Position numbers and translations under genes: made by a program
Shown: positions 17,796 through 62,023 of the stretch, one piece after another
How the letters are laid out: each line of letters begins with the position of its first letter
Position numbering within the stretch: the stretch's first letter is position 1
DNA from: Mizuhopecten yessoensis
Taxonomy: Eukaryota
Assembly (NCBI RefSeq): GCF_002113885.1
Contig: NW_018405252.1
Span: 187,992-251,991 of the forward strand
Length of the DNA stretch: 64,000 nucleotides
Direction: 5' to 3'
Notes under the pieces: generated by a model
The model's input: only the letters and a program-made list of their open reading frames with translations
Told to the model about the DNA's origin: nothing
Databases searched by the model: none

Positions 17796-18460
17796 TGCTT
17801 CCGTCAGTTTCTGACCAAAGACGCCTACAGGACACTGATCCATGCATTTGTTACACATAATGACATTGACTCTTTTTTACAAATTGCCAAACGTACAACG
17901 CATAAATACTAACGTTGACTTTCTTAATAATACTAATATAATCCGAGGTTCTTCTTTACCGCTACATCACAACATAGTCCGTAGATCGTCTCAAAGCGAT
18001 TCACAAATTATTATCCGTGGTTATAGGGCCTTTGCAACCAGCCAATATCGTTCTCAACTCCCTGGGGAGCATACAGTCGGTGCCGCTCACAGCTAGCATT
18101 CTACAATTCTAGCACTGCCCGACAACCCCCGGCGTCCTACCACTAGACTATAACGTGCCTCCACGGAGTGGGTGCTTCCGTCAGTTTCTGACCAAAGACG
18201 CCTATAGGACACTGATCCATGCATTTGTTACACATAATGACATTGACTCTTTTTTACAAATTGCCAAACGTACAACGCATAAATACTAACGTTGACTTTA
18301 TTAATAATACTAATATAATCCGAGGTTCTTCTTTACCGCTACATCACAACATAGTCCGTAGATCTTCTCAAAGCGGTTCACAAATTATTATCCGTGGTTA
18401 TAGGGCCTTTGCACCCAGCCAATATCGTTCTCAACTCCCTGGGGAGCATACAGTCGGTGC
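17796..18460 (+). repeat. 288-bp direct duplication (17796-18083 / 18173-18460) beginning with an L2-like ORF2 fragment
   Basis: near-identical copies offset by 377; translates FRQFLTKDAYRTLIHAFVT, like the post-RT region of L2-clade LINEs. Confidence 0.8.
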
Positions 18461-36429: not shown

Positions 36430-37517
36430 TCAAAGATTTGATGATTTACCGAGGTATTACAATCTTGTTTGTTTTAGTACAGGACAATGAGATAAAGAGA
36501 CTCAAAGATTTGATGATTTACCGAGGTATTACAATCTTGTTTGTTTCAGTACGGATCAATGAGATAAAGAGACTCAAAGATTTGATGATTTACCGAGGTA
36601 TTACAATCTTGTTTGTTTCAGTACAGGACAATGAGATGAAGAGACTCAAAGATTTGATGATTTACCGAGGTATTACTATCTTGTTTGTTTCAGTACGGAT
36701 CAATGAGATAAAGAGACTCGAAGATTTGATGATTTACCGAGGTATTACAATCTTGTTTGTTTTAGTACAGGACAATGAGATGAAGAGACTCAAAGATTTG
36801 ATGATTTACCGAGGTATTACTATCTTGTTTGTTTCAGTACAGGACAATGAGATAAAGAGACTCAAAGATTTGATGATTTACCGAGGTATTACAATCTTGT
36901 TTGTTTTAGTACAGGACAATGAGATAAAGAGACTCAAAGATTTGATGATTTACCGAGGTATTACTATCTTGTTTGTTTCAGTACAGGACAATGAGATAAA
37001 GAGACTCAAAGATTTGATGATTTACCGAGGTATTACAATCTTGTTTGTTTTAGTACAGGACAATGAGATAAAGAGACTCAAAGATTTGATGATTTACCGA
37101 GGTATTACAATCTTGTTTGTTTCAGTACAGGACAATGAGATAAAGAGACTCAAAGATTTGATGATTTACCGAGGTATTACAATCTTGTTTGTTTTAGTAC
37201 AGGACAATGAGATAAAGAGACTCAAAGATTTGATGATTTACCGAGGTATTACAATCTTGTTTGTTTCAGTACAGGACAATGAGATAAAGAGACTCAAAGA
37301 TTTGATGATTTACCGAGGTATTACAATCTTGTTTGTTTTAGTACAGGACAATGAGATAAAGAGACTCAAAGATTTGATGATTTACCGAGGTATTACAATC
37401 TTGTTTGTTTCAGTACAGGACAATGAGATGAAGAGACTCAAAGATTTGATTATTAACCGAGGTTTTACAATCTTATTTATTTCAGTACGAGACAATGAGA
37501 TGAAGAGACTCAAAGAT
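36430..37517 (+). repeat. 72-bp tandem array of the USP32 intron1/exon2 junction (15 acceptors)
   Basis: AG at 36477 + 72n up to 37485; unit is about 40 nt intron + 32 nt exon 2. Confidence 0.95.
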
Positions 37518-41087: not shown

Positions 41088-41206
41088 TGATATTCGGTAT
41101 GTATGCTGACGAGTCCTACACATATGTACAGAAAGATGATATGGACAGACGGATACTGGAGACAGAAGGACAAGTATCAACAGCTTTATCAGATCTATTC
41201 CTCGAG
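41088..41206 (+). CDS. USP32: USP32 exon 4 (LIFGMYADESYTYVQKDDMDRRILETEGQVSTALSDLFLE)
   Basis: tttgcag|...GAG|gtaagc; phase consistent. Confidence 0.9.
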
Positions 41207-43325
41207 GTAAGCACCCCACCTGGTTATTCTAAGCCCCTATAAGACCTCTTCCATGAGGTAAACACCTCTCCTGGTTATTCTTAGCCCCTAAAAGACCTGT
41301 TCCATGAGGTAAGCACCTCTCCTGGCTATTCTAAGCACCTATAAGACCTCTTACATGAGGTAAGCACCTCTCCTGGTTATTCTAAGCCCCTATAAGACCA
41401 CTTCCTCGAGGTAAACACCTCTCCTGGTTATTCTTAGCCCCTATAAGACCTCTTCCATGAGGTAAACATCTCTCCTTGTTATTCTAAGCCCCTATAAGAC
41501 CTGTTCCATGAGGTAAACACCTCTCCTGGTTATTCTTAGCCCTATAAGACCTCTTCCTCGAGGTAAACACCTCTCCTGGTTATTCTTAGCCCCTATAAGA
41601 CCTCTTCAATGAGGTAAGCACCTCTCCTGGTTATTCTTAGCCCCTATAAGACCTCTTCCATGAGGTAAACACCTCTTCTGGTTATTCTAGGCCCCTATAA
41701 GACGTCTTCCATGAGGTAAACACCTCTCCTGGTTATTCTTAGCCCCTATAAGACCTCTTCTGTGAGGTAATTATAAGCACCTCTCCTGGTTATTCTAAGC
41801 CACTTACAATGTATAATCAAATCTCTTTCTTGAAGTAACCACCTCTCCTGGTTATTCTAAGCCCCTATAAGACCTCTTCCATGAGGTAAACACCTCTCCT
41901 GGTTATTCTTAGCCCCTTTAAGACCTCTTCCATGAGGTAAGCACCTCTCCTGGTTATTCTAAGCCCCTTTAAGACCTCTTCCATGAGGTAAACACCTCTC
42001 CTGGTTATTCTTAGCCCCTTTAAGACCTCTTCCATGAGGTAACCACCTCTCCTGGTTATTCTAAGCCCCTATAAGACCTCTTCCATGAGGTAAACACCTC
42101 TCCTGGTTATTCTTAGCCCCTTTAAGACCTCTTCCATGAGGTAAGCACCTCTCCTGGTTATTCTAAGCCCCTTTAAGACCTCTTCCATGAGGTAAACACC
42201 TCTCCTGGTTATTCTTAGCCCCTTTAAGACCTCTTCCATGAGGTAAACACCTCTCCTGGTTATTCTAAGCCCCTTTAAGACCTCTTCCATGAGGTAAACA
42301 CCTCTCCTGGTTATTCTAAGCCCCTTTAAGACCTCTTCCATGAGGTAAACACCTCTCCTGGTTATTCTTAGCCCCTTTAAGACCTCTTCCATGAGGTAAA
42401 CACCTCTCCTGGTTATTCTAAGCCCCTATAAGACCTCTTCCATGAGGTAAACACCTCTCCTGGTTATTCTTAGCCCCTTTAAGACCTCTTCCATGAGGTA
42501 AGCACCTCTCCTGGTTATTCTAAGCCCCTTTAAGACCTCTTCCATGAGGTAAACACCTCTCCTGGTTATTCTAAGCCCCTAAAAGACCTGTTCCATGAGG
42601 TAAGCACCTCTCCTGGTTATTCTAGGCCCCTATAAGACCTCTTCCATGAGGTAAACACCTCTCCTGGTTATTCTAAGCCCCTATTAGACCTGTTCCATGA
42701 GGTAAACACCTCTTCTGGTTATTCTAGGCCCCTATAAGACCTCTTCCATGAGGTTAACACCTCTCCTGGTTATTCCAAGCCCCCTATAAGACCTCTTCTG
42801 TGAGGTAATTATAAGCACCTCTCCTGGTTATTCTAAGCCACTTACAATGTATAATCAAATCTCTTTCTTGAAGTAACCACCTCTGCTGGTTGTTTTAAGC
42901 CCCCTGTAAGACTTCTTCCATGGTTATGTTAACCCCCCTATCAGACCTGTTCCATGAGGTAAGCACCTCCCCTGGTTATTCTGAGCACCCAAGAAGACCT
43001 CTTCCTTGAGGTAAGCACCTCTGCTGGTTTTTCTAAGTCCCTTATAATCACTAACTCTTTTTTTAAGTTAGCCACTTCTGTTGGTTGTTCTAAGCTCTCC
43101 AATTTTTCCCTGAGGTAAGCATCACTGTTGCTTGTTCTAAGCTCCCAAACCTTTTCCCGCAGGTAAGCATCACTGTTGCTTGTTCTAAGCTCCCCAACCT
43201 TTTCCCGGAGGTAAGCATCACTGTTGGTTGTTCTAACCTGTCTGATGTCTTCTTTTGCCTGTTTGTATTAAGTCCCTTATCAGATTTCTTCCTTGAGGTA
43301 AGCTCCTCTACTGGTTGTTTTAAGC
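41191..43325 (+). repeat. 51-bp tandem array of the USP32 exon4/intron4 junction, decaying distally
   Basis: unit gacctcttccatgag|gtaa(a/g)cacctctcctggttattctaagcccctataa derived from gatctattcctcgag|gtaagc. Confidence 0.95.
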
Positions 43326-46140: not shown

Positions 46141-48395
46141 GGGCCTACATGTACCTTACCATCCCCTTGATTTTGGATGGGTACAATATAGTGTTCATTC
46201 ATATGTATAAACCTATGTATGTCAGTTTGTGTATCTTCCCTTTTGTAATCCATCTAGCAACTTCATTTCAGAATTTCAAGGTGCCAGGGTCAAGTTAACT
46301 GTTACTATATAAAGAAACTTTGTGTGATACCTTGAACAAAATGATGTAATGATTGCAGAAAACAGCTGGATAGCCTATTTAAACTTTCAAAAACTAAGAA
46401 ATCAAGTGCAGTTGGGAAGTCTGTAACATGATATGCTTGTGTGTAATACGATATATGGTATGAGATGATCTAGTTGCTCCTATAGAACTTGTCATACACT
46501 GTGTTTGTCATTGGGTGATACAGCCAATCAACACTAATGTGTCTGTCACCAGATCCTACGGAGTTCTAACAGACGATGTGCTGTTTGTTTTTATCTCTAT
46601 GTATCTAGCTATCCTGCTAGGTTATAATTAGATTTGTAGCATATTTTTGTCTAATTTCAGTGAAAAATTTCCAAAAAAAGAATTGTGATAACAAGGAATA
46701 AATTGGAAAATAAAGAATCATATAAAGTAGAATAAATACATGTTGTCAACAGTTTTTTATGGTTTTAACCTAGAGTGATTTAGAAGGGCATTTTGTATGT
46801 GTTTTTTAAAGCAATTCAGAAGGTCATTCTTTTATATATTTATATTGTTATTTAGAAAGGCACATAATTTGTTTGTATTTGTTAAGTAATTTGGAAGGGG
46901 ACCTTGTATATATTTGAAGTGAGTTAGAAGGGATTTGCAGTGGTTTAGAAGGGCACTTTGTGTTTGTGGTAATTAGACCAACTACGGTATATATACAAAT
47001 GTATGCATGCGCATTGAATTATAGCTGAAGGCTACAATTAGAGAATGTGGGTAGTGTTTGTGTGAATTATTGAAATAATTAGCTTATTACACGCAGAATT
47101 CCATGTTGCCAACATTGTTTTCTATATTAAATTTTGAAGAATTTTTTTTGTTGATATTATCTTGTTTCTGATTAAACACGATATGAAAACAGGATATACT
47201 CCAAACCCATGGAATATGTCACAGACATAAACCACACGGAACTCTCGGGTGTTGGGAGGGCGGTTTTATTATCTAATTGCTATGATGCCTTAGGGACTTG
47301 CTTCAGAGTGTGTTTGAATTGGGTCTCTACGGCATAACAGATGATAATTTGCCTAAAACCTTTGTACAGGATTGGTTGTTAAATTCATGTTAAAAATATT
47401 ATTTAAAAAAATAGTAATGAATATCCAACTGGCCTTTGTTTAGTTTCCTATACAAACCTATAACATTAAATTAGATATGGACAAGCAATCATTTTATCAG
47501 GGGCTGCTCCAAGGTGATGACGACCGAGTTGTTTTGAACCATCACACTTTGGGAAGTCAAGTGTGGAGAGTTCATTGAGTTGACATTAAGATAACTTAGA
47601 GTTTTAAACAACTGCAGGGTGAATTTGATGCCGTATTAATTCAATCTTTAAATGCCAGAAGATGTGGGAATTAATTGTGTCATTTGATTCTTACATTCAA
47701 AACTGAATGCTTGGCTGTTTTAAGATTGGATAATAATTCTCATACAGTTTCTACAAAATAGGAATTTAGTTTTAGATGTGAACATGAGATAATGGCTTCC
47801 CTGCTGATGTTTAAATACATTTAAAGATGGCGACAGGCTTCCTATGTTTACATCCATAGTTTTGCTCCAAAGCAATGAAACGTTAACTCTGTGTCTTATC
47901 CCATTAAACCATGAGAGATTAACTCACGTTAAATGATATTGGAACTAATATTATACCCTATACATTGTAAAGTGTATCCTATTTTTGCGTCATTATTTTA
48001 TGCCCCATTATTAAATGGGATGGAGAAACATACATAACTACCCATGTCTGAAATTCTGTCTGTCCATCCCCTTGTATCAAGTTCAAGGTCATTGTTTGTA
48101 AGATGTTAAGAATATTTCCCATCGCTCAACTTGCCTCATTATCCTTTAATTTTTATGAATTATTTACAATTGTACAGCGCTCAAATTTTTCTAATATTTA
48201 AGGTTGTGGTTGCAAGGTCAATGTCTCTTCCTATAAATAGATACTATTTGTCATCACTCCACTCATTATCATTTGATTTGGTTGAATCTCAGATCATAAA
48301 AACCTCCTAAGAGTTGTTTTTCAGAGTCCTGGACCAAACGTTCATGTAGCATTGATCAGGTCTTGCAGACATTGTCTATTTCTGTTTTAAACTTC

Positions 48396-50995
48396 TGACT
48401 TAACACTTCTGTGACATGACTTAACACTTCTGTGACACGACTTAACACTTCTGTGACATGACTTACCCCTTCTGTGACACGACATAACACTTCTGTGACA
48501 CGACTTAACGCTTCTGTGACATGACTTAACACTTCTGTGGCACGACATAACACTTCTGTGACATGACTTAACTCTTCTATGACATGACTTAACACTTCTG
48601 TGACATGACTTAACCCTTCTGTGACGTGACTTAACACTTCTGTGCCACGACATAACACTTCTGTGACATAACTTAACACTCCTGTGACATGACTTAACAC
48701 TTCTGTGACACTACTTAACACTTCTGTGACATGACTTATCACTTCTTTGACATGACTTAACACTTCTGTGACCCGACATAACACTTCTGTGACATGACTT
48801 AACTCTTCTGTGACACGACTTAACACTTCTGTGACATGACCTAACACTTCTGTGACATGACTTAACACTTCTTTCTGTGACATGACTTAACACTTCTGTG
48901 ACGTCACTTAACACTTCTGTGACACGACATAACAATTCTGTGACATGACTTAACACTTCTGTGACATGACATAACACTTCTGTGACATGACTTAACTCTT
49001 CTGTGACATGACTTAACGCTTCTGTTACACGACATAACACTTCTGTGACATGACTTACCCCTTCTGTGACACGACATAACACTTCTGTGACATCTTAACA
49101 CTTCTGTGACATGACTTAACACTCCTGCGACATAACTTAACACTTCTGTGACACGACATAGCACTTCTGTGACACGACTTAACACTTCTGTGACATGACT
49201 TACCACTTCTGTGACACGACTTAACACTCCTGTGACATGACTTAACACTTCTGTGACATGACATAACACTTCTGTGACATGACTTAACTCTTCTGTGACA
49301 TGACTTAACACTTCTGTGGCACGACATAACACTTCTGTGACATGACTTACCCCTTCTGTGACACGACTTAACACTTCTGTGACGTGACTTAACTCTTCTG
49401 TGACGTGACTTAACACTTCTGTGACATGACTTAACTCTTCTATGACATGACTTAACACTTCTGTGACATGACATAACACTTCTGTGACACGACTTAACGC
49501 TTCTGTGACATGACTTAACACTTCTGTGGCACGACATAACACTTCTGTGACATGACTTCACTTCTGTGACACGACATAACACTTCTGTGTCACGACTTAA
49601 CACTTCTGTGACATGACTTACCACTTCTGTGACACGACTTAACACTTCTGTGACATGACTTAGCACTTCTGTGACACGACATAACACTTCTGTGTCACGA
49701 CTTAACACTTCTGTGACATGACTTATCACTTCTTTGACATGACTTAACACTTCTGTGACCCGACATAACACTTCTGTGACATGACTTAACTCTTCTGTGA
49801 CACGACTTAACACTTCTGTGACATGACTTAACAATTCTGTGACACGACATAACACTTCTGTGACGTGACTTAACACTTCTGTGATGTGACTTAACACTTC
49901 TGTGACATGACTTAACTCTTCTGTGACATGACTTAACGCTTCTGTTACACGACATAACACTTCTGTGACATGACTTAACTCTTCTGTGACATGACTTAAC
50001 GCTTCTGTTACACGACATAACACTTCTGTGACATGACTTCACTTCTGTGACACGACATAACACTTCTGTGTTATGACTTAACACTTATGTGACACGACAT
50101 AACACTTCTGTGACATCTTAACACTTCTGTGACATGACTTAACACTCCTCCTAAGAGTTGTTTTTCAGAGTCCTGGACCAAACGTTCATGTAGCATTGAT
50201 CAGGTCTTGCAGACATTGTCTATTTCTGTTTTAAACTTCTGACTTAACACTTGTGTGACATGACTTAACACTTCTGTGACATAACTTAACACTTCTGTGA
50301 CATGACTTAACCCTTCTGTGACGTGACTTAACACTTCTGTGACATGAATTAACACTCCTGTGACATAACTTAACACTTCTGTGACATGACTTAACCCTTC
50401 TGTGACACGACTTAACCCTTCTGTGACATGACTTAACACTTCTGTGACGTCACTTAACACTTCTGTGACACGACATAACACTTATGTGACACGACTTAAC
50501 ACTTCTGTGACACGACATAACAATTCTGTGACATGACTTAACACTTCTGTGAAATGACTTAACACTTCTGTGACGTGACTTAACACTTCTGTGACGTGAC
50601 TTAACACTTCTGTGACATGACTTAACACTCCTGTGACATAACTTAACACTTCTGTGACACGACATAACACTTCTGTGACACGACTTAACACTTCTATGAC
50701 ATGACTTAACACTTCTGTGACATGACTTAACACTGCTGTGACATGACTTAACACTTCTGTGACACGACTTAACCCTTCTGTGACATGACTTAACACTCCT
50801 GTGACATGACTTAGCACTTCTGTGACACGACATAACACTTCTGTGACACGACTCAACACTTCTGTGACATGACTTAACACTTCTGTGACATGACTTAACA
50901 CTCCTGTGACATGACTTAACACTTCTGTGACACGACATAACACTCCTGTGACATGACTTAACACTTCTGTGACATGACTTAACACTTCTGTGAAA
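48396..50995. repeat. 21-bp minisatellite interrupted by a copy of its own left flank
   Basis: unit gacttaacacttctgtgacat; flank 48303-48400 repeated at 50147-50244. Confidence 0.95.
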
Positions 50996-54553: not shown

Positions 54554-55189
54554 GTAGGCATTCAAAGACGTATTTCACGTAAATGTAGCACAGCTAGACT
54601 GGCCTGTAAAGATGTCTTGGCTAATACAGCACCCAATTAGAATTAAGACATCATGGTATTGTCCAGTTCAAATTTTATGGTCATGTGAGTGTCCTAGTAG
54701 AGTTCAGCTGGTCATGTTAGTGACCAATGATAGTTCGAATGAAGTAAAAGTGTCCAATTACATTTCAATGGTCATTGGAGCATCCAGTTAGATTTCATAA
54801 GGTCATAAGTTTATATTATGTTTTAGCCTTTTGTAGTTTGTCGACTTCTTTTATTGAAGTCAGATTTGTGATACTCCTAAACATGACTTGTGCTCCACCT
54901 GGAGGGAGCTTTCAGTGAGGTCTGGTTGTCAGTACAGTAACAATGATTATCTGTATAGAACGACTAATTTTATATGTTTATACAATACAACAAGTTAACA
55001 TGTTTTAATAAACATGTTTTAATAAACATGTTTAAGGGACTCAAGGACACATATGTGTCAAAAAGGGATAACGAAGAACAGGATAAACACCAGGTAAATC
55101 TGCACTGTATCTAGTATAACTGGTTTATATGTTATATAATCCCCAATATACCCAGTAATACAATATATATATATATAGAATCATTACCG

Positions 55190-56315: not shown

Positions 56316-56399
56316 GATGGCTGTATCTCCATGGCAGAATACCTGGTATGGACAGTCAACAATACGCTGGCTGATGACTTCCTCGATCTCCTTAGTCAG
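56316..56399 (+). CDS. USP32: USP32 exon 10 (DGCISMAEYLVWTVNNTLADDFLDLLSQ)
   Basis: ttgcag|...CAG|gtaggt; first of 18 duplicated donors taken as the authentic one. Confidence 0.88.
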
Positions 56400-57848
56400 G
56401 TAGGTATATACACAACTAATAAATACCTGGTATGGACAGTCAACAATACGCTGGCTGATGACTTCCTCGATCTCCTTAGTCAGGTAGGTATATACACAAC
56501 TAATAAATACCTGGTATGGACAGTCAACAATACGCTGGCTGATGACTTCCTCGATCTCCTTAGTCAGGTAGGTATATACACAACTAATAAATACCTGGTA
56601 TGGACAGTCAACAATACGCTGGCTGATGACTTCCTCGATCTCCTTAGTCAGGTAGGTATATACACAACTAATAAATACCTGGTATGGACAGTCAACAATA
56701 CGCTGGCTGATGACTTCCTCGATCTCCTTAGTCAGGTAGGTATATACACAACTAATAAATACCTGGTATGGACAGTCAACAATACGCTGGCTGATGACTT
56801 CCTCGATCTCCTTAGTCAGGTAGGTATATACACAACTAATAAATACCTGGTATGGACAGTCAACAATACGCTGGCTGATGACTTCCTCGATCTCCTTAGT
56901 CAGGTAGGTATATACACAACTAATAAATACCTGGTATGGACAGTCAACAATACGCTGGCTGATGACTTCCTCGATCTCCTTAGTCAGGTAGGTATATACA
57001 CAACTAATAAATACCTGGTATGGACAGTCAACAATACGCTGGCTGATGACTTCCTCGATCTCCTTAGTCAGGTAGGTATATACACAACTAATAAATACCT
57101 GGTATGGACAGTCAACAATACGCTGGCTGATGACTTCCTCGATCTCCTTAGTCAGGTAGGTATATACACAACTAATAAATACCTGGTATGGACAGTCAAC
57201 AATACGCTGGCTGATGACTTCCTCGATCTCCTTAGTCAGGTAGGTATATACACAACTAATAAATACCTGGTATGGACAGTCAACAATACGCTGGCTGATG
57301 ACTTCCTCGATCTCCTTAGTCAGGTAGGTATATACACAACTAATAAATACCTGGTATGGACAGTCAACAATACGCTGGCTGATGACTTCCTCGATCTCCT
57401 TAGTCAGGTAGGTATATACACAACTAATAAATACCTGGTATGGACAGTCAACAATACGCTGGCTGATGACTTCCTCGATCTCCTTAGTCAGGTAGGTATA
57501 TACACAACTAATAAATACCTGGTATGGACAGTCAACAATACGCTGGCTGATGACTTCCTCGATCTCCTTAGTCAGGTAGGTATATACACAACTAATAAAT
57601 ACCTGCTATGGACAGTCAACAATATGCTGGCTGATGACTTCCTCGATCTCCTTAGTCAGGTAGGTATATACACAACTAATAAATACCTGCTGGACAGTCA
57701 ACAATATGCTGGCTGATGACTTCCTCGATCTCCTTATTCAGGTAGGAATATACACAACTAATAAATACCTGGTGTGGACAGTCAACAATACGCTGGCTGA
57801 TGCCTTCCTCAATCTCCTTAGTCAGGTAGGTATATACACAACTAATAA
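56338..57848 (+). repeat. 84-bp tandem array of the USP32 exon10/intron10 junction (18 donors)
   Basis: GT at 56400 + 84n (n=0-15), 57742 and 57826; unit is about 62 nt exon + 22 nt intron. Confidence 0.97.
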
Positions 57849-58027: not shown

Positions 58028-58089
58028 ATTTGCCATATAGTATTAGGACTAAAGCCTCAGAAAAGGGAAGAAGAAGGAAAAATTGTCAA
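58028..58089 (+). CDS. USP32: USP32 exon 11 (ICHIVLGLKPQKREEEGKIV)
   Basis: ccttcag|...AA|gtaagt; CHIVLGLxP motif. Confidence 0.93.
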
Positions 58090-60734: not shown

Positions 60735-62023
60735 TATACAGGTGTAATATACTTTTTATACAGGTTTTATACATGTGATACACAGTCAAGTGTAACATAC
60801 ATTTTATACAGGTGTTATACAGGTGATATACATGTGATTCACACTCGAGTGTAACATACATTTTATACAGGTGTTATATAGGTGTTATACATGTGATACA
60901 CACTCGAGTGTAACATACATTTTATACAGGTGTTATATAGGTGTTATACATGTGATACACACTCGAGTGTAACATACAATTTATACAGGTGTTATACAGG
61001 TGATATACATGTGCTTCACACTCGAGTGTAACATACATTTTATACAGGTTTTATACATGTGATACACAGTCAAGTGTAACATACATTTTATACAGGTGTT
61101 ATATAGGTGTTATACATGTTATACACACTCGAGTGTAACATACATTTTATATAGGTGATATACATGTGATATACGTGTGATACACACTCGAGTGTAACAT
61201 ACATTTTATAAAGGTGTTCTACAGATGATATACATGTGATACACACCCGAGTGTAACATACATTTTATACAGGTGTTCTACAGGTGATATACATGTGATA
61301 CACACTCGAGTGAAACATACATTTTATACAGGTGTTCTACAGATGATATCCATGTGATACACACTCGAGTGTAACATACATTTTATAAAGGTGTTCTACA
61401 GATGATATACATGTGATACACACCCGAGTGTAACATACATTTTATACAGGTGTTCTACGGGTGATATACATGTGATACACACTCAAGTGTAACATACATT
61501 TTATACAGGTGTTATACAGGTGATATTCATGTGATTCACACTCGAGTGTAACATACATTTTATACAGGTGATCTACAGATGATATACATGTGATACACAC
61601 TCGAGTGTAACATACAATTTATACAGGTGTTATACAGGAGATATACATGTGATACACACTCGAGTGTAACATGCATTTTTATACAGGTGTTATACAGGTG
61701 ATATACATGTGATTCACTCTCGAGTGTAACATACATTTTATGCAGGTGTTATATAGGTGTTATACATGTGATACACACTCGAGTGTAACATACAATTTAT
61801 ACAGGTGTTATACAGGTGATATACATGTGCTTCACACTCGAGTGTAACATACATTTTATACAGGTTTTATACATGTGATACACAGTCAAGTGTAACATAC
61901 ATTTTATACAGGTGTTATACACGTGATATACATGTAATACACACTCGAGTGTAACATACATTTTATACAGGTGTTCTACATGTGATACACACTCGAGTGT
62001 AACATACATTTTTACAGGTGATA
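60735..62023 (+). repeat. ~59-bp minisatellite whose last unit is the USP32 exon 15 acceptor
   Basis: unit ctcgagtgtaacatacattttatacaggtgttatacaggtgatatacatgtgatacaca; final unit ...gtaacatacatttttacag|GTGATA. Confidence 0.95.

Follow-up and report, generated by a model that had tools for sequence, protein, structure and literature searches.

The USP32 locus and its exon 11

The window, that is the whole stretch of 64,000 nucleotides that was analysed, carries on its forward strand the scallop USP32 gene as host of a tandem array of 84-bp units. Identity of the host gene has been derived from an exon upstream of the array, which is 100% identical to USP32-labelled proteins of Mizuhopecten yessoensis (59 relatives returned), and from spliced mapping of the submitter's protein model P0001 onto the window extended by 80 kb of adjacent genome, by which P0001 was reproduced exactly in 35 coding exons. 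The exons around the array are the following:

55037..55093, + strand: 57-nt cassette exon 10 (19 aa), present in P0001, lacking in RefSeq isoform X3
56316..56399, + strand: USP32 coding exon 11, 84 nt, phase 0/0, P0001 residues 354-381 (exact spliced mapping)
58028..58089, + strand: exon 12, the acceptor partner of exon 11 (spliced mapping; 6 joint reads in RNA run X24)

A reading of this DNA from its letters alone, referred to below as the sequence-only reading, had numbered the array-bearing exon as exon 10; this numbering is correct for transcripts that skip the 57-nt cassette exon and incorrect for P0001, where the exon is coding exon 11 of 35. The cassette exon, whose 19 aa fall into the loop of the final EF-hand-like motif, is found in P0001 and RefSeq X1/X2 and is absent from the other 47 aligned proteins; equally, it is skipped in all five reads of run X24 that show the upstream junction.

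Extra units encoded by the array would enter the protein between P0001 residues 381 and 382. Pfam domains on P0001 (EF-hands 212-320, DUSP 416-621) place this point between the EF-hand region and DUSP, where the sequence-only reading had put it. In an alignment of 48 homologous proteins of at least 400 aa, from which the three RefSeq forms with an insert and fragments below 400 aa were left out, the segment at the insertion point comprises 24 residues in 45 proteins, while one of the other three is devoid of the region and two exceed this length by 2-3 residues. In the AlphaFold model of a 429-aa homologous N-terminal fragment (mean pLDDT 80.9) the insertion point corresponds to position 364, inside a helix (354-370), the start of which would, according to this model, be restored by the last extra unit.

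Anatomy of the 84-bp donor array

The array extends from within exon 11 far into intron 11 and can be divided as follows:

56338..57848, + strand: splice-donor minisatellite (mirage), 84 bp x 18 (TRF period 84, 18.0 copies, 98% matches)
56400..56421, + strand: donor 1, CAG|GTAGGT, the authentic donor with its GT at 56400, followed by the intronic spacer (22 nt) of unit 1
56422..57597, + strand: copies 2-15, the same as copy 1; RefSeq X1-X3 splice from donor 15 (after 57575)
57598..57847, + strand: diverged distal copies 16, 17 and 18 (copy-by-copy comparison)

The unit is composed of the 62 nt of the exon 3' end and the first 22 nt of the intron, with copy 1 starting 22 nt into the 84-nt exon and ending 22 nt into the intron. 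That 18 copies of the last approximately 62 exon nucleotides with their CAG|GTAGG donor are present, as stated in the sequence-only reading, is borne out by TRF and by the comparison of copies, and the run of about 15 identical copies proved to be exactly copies 1-15, the number of perfect copies being taken from the assembly alone. Copy 16 deviates by 2 substitutions, copy 17 by the same 2 substitutions and a 2-nt deletion, and copy 18 by 3 substitutions different from those of copies 16 and 17. The variants of copy 16 (57598-57681) specify two amino-acid changes, and an unequal exchange between copy 16 and copy 1 could carry such variants into the coding exon.

The donor motif CAG|GTAGG is kept in 18/18 copies. 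Sixteen of the 17 extra donors match donor 1 exactly over positions -3 to +6, and donors 2-15 have an identical context from -62 to +22. Donor 1 itself scores higher than 98% of 95 real donors, on a matrix built from the same sample. Translation confirmed that donors 2-16 are in frame and stop-free, each adding n x 28 aa, and that donors 17 and 18 are shifted in frame and run into stops, the 2-nt deletion in copy 17 to which this had been ascribed being indeed present. The absence of a good acceptor from the unit was equally verified: ranked against 95 real acceptors taken from three genes in the same genome, none of its four AGs scores above the 4th percentile. The proposed AATAC microhomology at the unit junction, on the other hand, proved inexact: left, junction and right flanks have exactly 1 nt in common, and AATA stands at the end of the spacer as well as at the start of the unit, both of these AATA being retained.

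Two further interpretations of the repeat were considered on this basis. Tandem exon duplication, including mutually exclusive exons, was rejected, as the copies are devoid of the first 22 exon nucleotides and their AGs are as weak as stated; being without an acceptor, the copies cannot act as exons. Use of an internal acceptor or recursive splicing at the AG|GT of the unit was set aside because the unit AGs score weakly.

The 84-bp array is real, and no N occurs within or near it. That the run of identical copies has been largely mis-assembled from an allele with only a few copies is exceedingly improbable. Short reads cannot count 15 identical 84-mers (1260 nt), and the copy number comes solely from an assembly in 82,659 contigs; against such an artefact stand the private variants of copies 16-18, two of them common to 16 and 17, which amount to at least four unit types, and the 10 other boundary arrays in USP32 with internal matches of 72-99%. 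Furthermore, mis-assembly would change the number of copies and not the class of repeat.

Relation to known boundary minisatellites

Under the name of mirages, exon-intron boundaries duplicated in tandem have been described in amphioxus, on one or the other side of an exon and with splicing undisturbed; they occur in Adh3, the globins BflGb6 and BflGb9, troponin C and PGBD5 (PMC3087553 and PMC3902484). The scallop array is a head-to-tail array with a terminal unit over a real USP32 boundary and with the splice signal in its intronic copies; it belongs to the class of mirages or F7-type splice-donor minisatellites known from amphioxus and human genes. In line with the accounts of amphioxus mirages, splice signals are kept and the copies at the edge escape homogenisation, and no aberrant mRNA is reported in those accounts. 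Differences from them are the mollusc host, the number of copies (18 versus 3-6 in BflGb6) and the much higher density in the scallop, with 11 of 68 splice sites affected in one gene.

The 37-bp VNTR in intron 7 of human F7 provides a further close comparison. In this system, only the most upstream of the identical donors has been shown experimentally to be used, and the fifth and sixth pseudo-sites, the only ones without a stop, are both unused (Borensztajn et al., 2006; PMC1557585). As cited in the same source, donor 1 alone is used in the arrays of lamin B2, with a 100-bp unit, and of PDGFA, with 16-18 copies of 81 bp, while human CBS (intron 13) and 6-16 employ donors 2-3 in addition to donor 1 (PMC1557585). 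The scallop array resembles F7 in that the first minisatellite unit spans the exon-intron boundary and the identical donor is repeated down the intron, and in size comes close to the PDGFA array. It differs from F7 in that the exonic part makes up 62 of 84 nt of the unit versus 4 of 37, in that donors 2-16 are all in frame, in its bivalve host, and in that use of the first donor is deduced from 10 reads and not, as in F7, from minigenes. A literature search, conducted mostly without subscription papers or supplements, retrieved no account of the USP32 array or of scallop mirages; likewise, the accessible part of PMC10078293 holds no direct parallel to the array.

RNA reads across exon 11, the array and exon 12

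Raw RNA reads from four runs of four studies were aligned to the last copy and exon 12. The result derives from run X24, a poly(A) run of which approximately 24% was read and which gave 10 reads; runs X19, X22 and X23 gave 0 reads on the stretch. Spacer letters occur in none of the 10 X24 reads, with the array being known from the assembly and not from the animal of X24, and neither the two spacer stretches nor the unique intron have any coverage in this run (depth 0). Eight reads end exactly at the unit start, five of which continue as exon 9 followed by the unique 5' part of exon 11. Six reads, from only four start places, join exon 12 over GT..AG. Copy 18 is distinguishable at three positions, and at each of them every covering read (8, 9 and 8) carries the letter of copies 1-15. 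Judged from the depth table, at least one read, and probably three, would span from the unique start of exon 11 to exon 12. As no X24 read contains spacer, the cell likely uses the first donor only.

How far these reads reach depends on the length of the insert. At the depth of X24, an mRNA with 14 extra units would predict about 66 spacer reads against 0 seen, which sets a 95% bound of about 5%, while a form with one unit would predict about 8, with a 95% bound on donor-2 use of about 37%. The junction reads that had been proposed as a check have delivered exon 11-exon 12 joins free of spacer in run X24 and constrain use of donor 2 no further than to this 37%. A coding VNTR was rejected on the same grounds, no units being seen in mRNA (0/10 spacer reads versus about 66 for the 14-unit form), a rejection that is weak for one unit. 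Word shares, 0.12 in nine RNA-like runs and 0.79-0.81 in four rows of one sample, have been left out of the argument because the values predicted for exon only (about 0.09) and for exon plus unit (about 0.14) are too close to tell the two forms apart.

Occasional use of the nearest extra donors, with donor 1 dominant and donors 2-3 used in a few percent of transcripts that would gain 28 or 56 aa and escape NMD, is judged unlikely. The strength of the donor, the identical context of donors 2-15 from -62 to +22, the precedent of human CBS and 6-16 (PMC1557585) and the wide bound on donor 2 speak in its favour; the 0/10 reads with spacer, the restriction of F7, lamin B2 and PDGFA to donor 1 (same source) and the lack of any sign of frame selection among 12 donor arrays speak against it. 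Exons of 168 or 252 nt are ordinary in size and their products would escape NMD, a consideration that counts against first-donor use as the sole outcome.

RefSeq models and the choice of donor

Annotated proteins differ in the donor used. Donor 1 is used by the submitter's model P0001 (OWF52140) and by the Ylistrum protein, whereas all three RefSeq isoforms, XP_021349869-71 (X1-X3), contain 14 extra units of together 392 aa. This insert corresponds to use of donor 15, that is of the last among the copies that match the exon exactly. A read over the junction that covers no more than 62 nt of exon can be placed equally well at any of donors 1-15. As the intron is shortest from donor 15, a tie in mapping would yield a donor-15 model; as the frame is open, such a model could pass the gene builder. 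The RefSeq insert is probably an artefact of tied read alignments. The RefSeq models nevertheless count against the first-donor reading.

A genuine RefSeq form or full ladder, with distal donors adding up to 15 extra 28-aa units between EF-hands and DUSP, is considered very unlikely. The 14 units in three RefSeq isoforms, the frame open through donor 16 and the helix start that the last unit would restore are consistent with such a ladder. They have to be weighed against the roughly 66 predicted and 0 found spacer reads, P0001 and all other homologues without the insert, the requirement for an internal exon of 1260 nt, and an insert whose end coincides with the last perfect copy. Gene annotation can be led astray by in-frame mirages, and the three RefSeq USP32 proteins of this species probably carry a spurious 392-aa repeat.

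Sister arrays and the reading frame

In USP32, 62 merged tandem arrays cover 43 of 90 kb. Eleven of them span splice sites, of which the gene has 68: 9 arrays lie at its 34 donors and 2 at its 34 acceptors. Besides the exon 11 array these are:

36430..37517, + strand: sister mirage at an acceptor, 15 copies of 72 bp, with its end in exon 2 (37486) (TRF, spliced mapping)
41204..42839, + strand: sister mirage at the exon 4 donor, 32 copies of 51 bp; use of donor 2 would lead to a stop codon
58571..59143, + strand: sister mirage at the exon 13 donor, 3.4 copies of 170 bp, not in frame
67476, 69319, 71145, 75897, 99364, 100572 and 107265 (window coordinates continued into the genome): further USP32 boundary arrays

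The unit of the exon 2 array comprises the acceptor and the first approximately 32 exon nucleotides, and the real exon begins in the last copy; upstream acceptors would likewise be in frame and open, at 72 nt per unit. A 59-bp x 21 array at 60756-62005, which ends 13 nt before the exon 16 acceptor and was not counted by the overlap test, has a unit resembling an acceptor and exon start (TTTTATACAG|GTG) and is, on this resemblance, a probable mirage.

The nine USP32 boundary arrays other than those of exons 11 and 2 consist of eight donor arrays and one acceptor array with 2 to 49 copies, and among them the 60-bp array at exon 24 is the sole one in frame and open. At seven of the nine USP32 donor arrays use of donor 2 would result in a stop or frameshift, one of these arrays having 35 identical downstream donors. 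As USP32 is intact and conserved, the spliceosome would have to favour the first donor at those arrays, whatever its strength, and first-donor choice is likely to be general in USP32.

An in-frame open outcome is expected for 1321 of 9006 (15%) possible duplications over the exon 11 donor, and for 769 of 3651 (21%) with units of 60-110 nt. With one of three donor arrays in frame in clathrin heavy chain, three of the 12 donor arrays of USP32 and clathrin are in frame and open, which is no excess over chance that would indicate selection for frame. The open frame of the exon 11 array fits chance. The in-frame arrays at USP32 exon 24 and clathrin exon 5 are both unused in the annotated proteins compared.

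Frequency of arrays at splice sites

Against a crude null, in which one seed unit per array is placed at random, 11 of 62 USP32 arrays lie at splice sites versus 3.9 expected (P ~0.001), in a gene that had been picked for having one. Two genes were chosen beforehand. In clathrin heavy chain 5 of 22 arrays are at splice sites versus 1.4 expected (P 0.011), three at donors and two at acceptors, one match having copies without an intact AG; the donor array at exon 5 (45 bp) is in frame and open. In TOP2 the count is 0 of 14 versus 1.1 expected. Clathrin and TOP2 pooled give 5 of 36 versus 2.5 expected (P 0.10), and all three genes 16 of 98 versus 6.4 expected. An excess of arrays at exon edges is suggested by these counts.

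The load of repeats varies widely from gene to gene; the topoisomerase II gene is poor in repeats, with arrays in 2.2 of 44 kb versus 43 of 90 kb in USP32. Tandem repeats have been reported to make up 21.7% and 11.3% of other scallop genomes (PMC10225492 and PMC5700196).

Origin of the array and its significance

The explanation that is highly probable regards the array as a tandem amplification of the USP32 exon 11/intron 11 boundary, which is likely to be neutral since the spliceosome probably takes the first donor downstream of the exon's acceptor and removes the other 17 copies with the intron. An 84-nt segment across the donor would have been duplicated once and, as the pattern of copies suggests, subsequently have expanded by slippage or unequal exchange, exon-proximal copies being homogenised while distal copies might have drifted. 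By analogy with F7, and in agreement with the reads and the sister arrays, recognition of the exon would run from its acceptor to donor 1, and all later copies would be discarded with the intron. The donor would be picked by position and not by strength, through exon definition or 5'-to-3' scanning as in F7, and the open frame may have arisen by chance. Among the two outcomes offered by the sequence-only reading, strict first-donor choice is supported by the 0/10 spacer reads, the seven of nine frame-breaking arrays and the F7 precedent. The ladder of isoforms with a variable-length insert found no support, given a frame that fits chance and a segment of fixed length in homologues, and with few reads and the RefSeq insert on record its refutation is incomplete.

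As it stands, the array is an ordinary, dense example of a described type of repeat. With nine natural donor arrays, one of which has 14 perfect in-frame copies that NMD cannot hide, USP32 constitutes a ready test of first-donor choice outside mammals. Since no other array unites an open frame with 14 perfect downstream donors, a more far-reaching proposal can be formulated, which we regard as quite unlikely: in some tissues donors 2-3 might be used, and the resulting USP32 isoforms, resistant to NMD, would contain a second version of the helix pair that leads away from the last EF-hand, at levels that depend on the array allele. An intronic minisatellite would then be turning into a coding VNTR, in a genome that would seed arrays at exon edges two to three times above chance. 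If either the minor use of donors or the excess at exon edges were true, it would bear on the origin of new coding repeats and introns.

Further observations in the surrounding DNA

Upstream of USP32, a segment of approximately 280 nt occurs twice in tandem (17813-18445), in surroundings that look like transposon remains. Approximately 100 nt of the unique left-edge flank of a 21-bp array recur inside this array (50145-50250 compared with 48300-48410), which represents either an internal segmental duplication or an assembly duplication. Pfam scanning beside USP32, performed on 51 of 395 candidate frames, identified downstream, on the minus strand, a SET-domain gene (PF00856, with a weak N-SET match) as the sole gene among the scanned frames. 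Equally downstream of USP32, arrays of 101 bp and 89 bp have units resembling an acceptor followed by an exon start.
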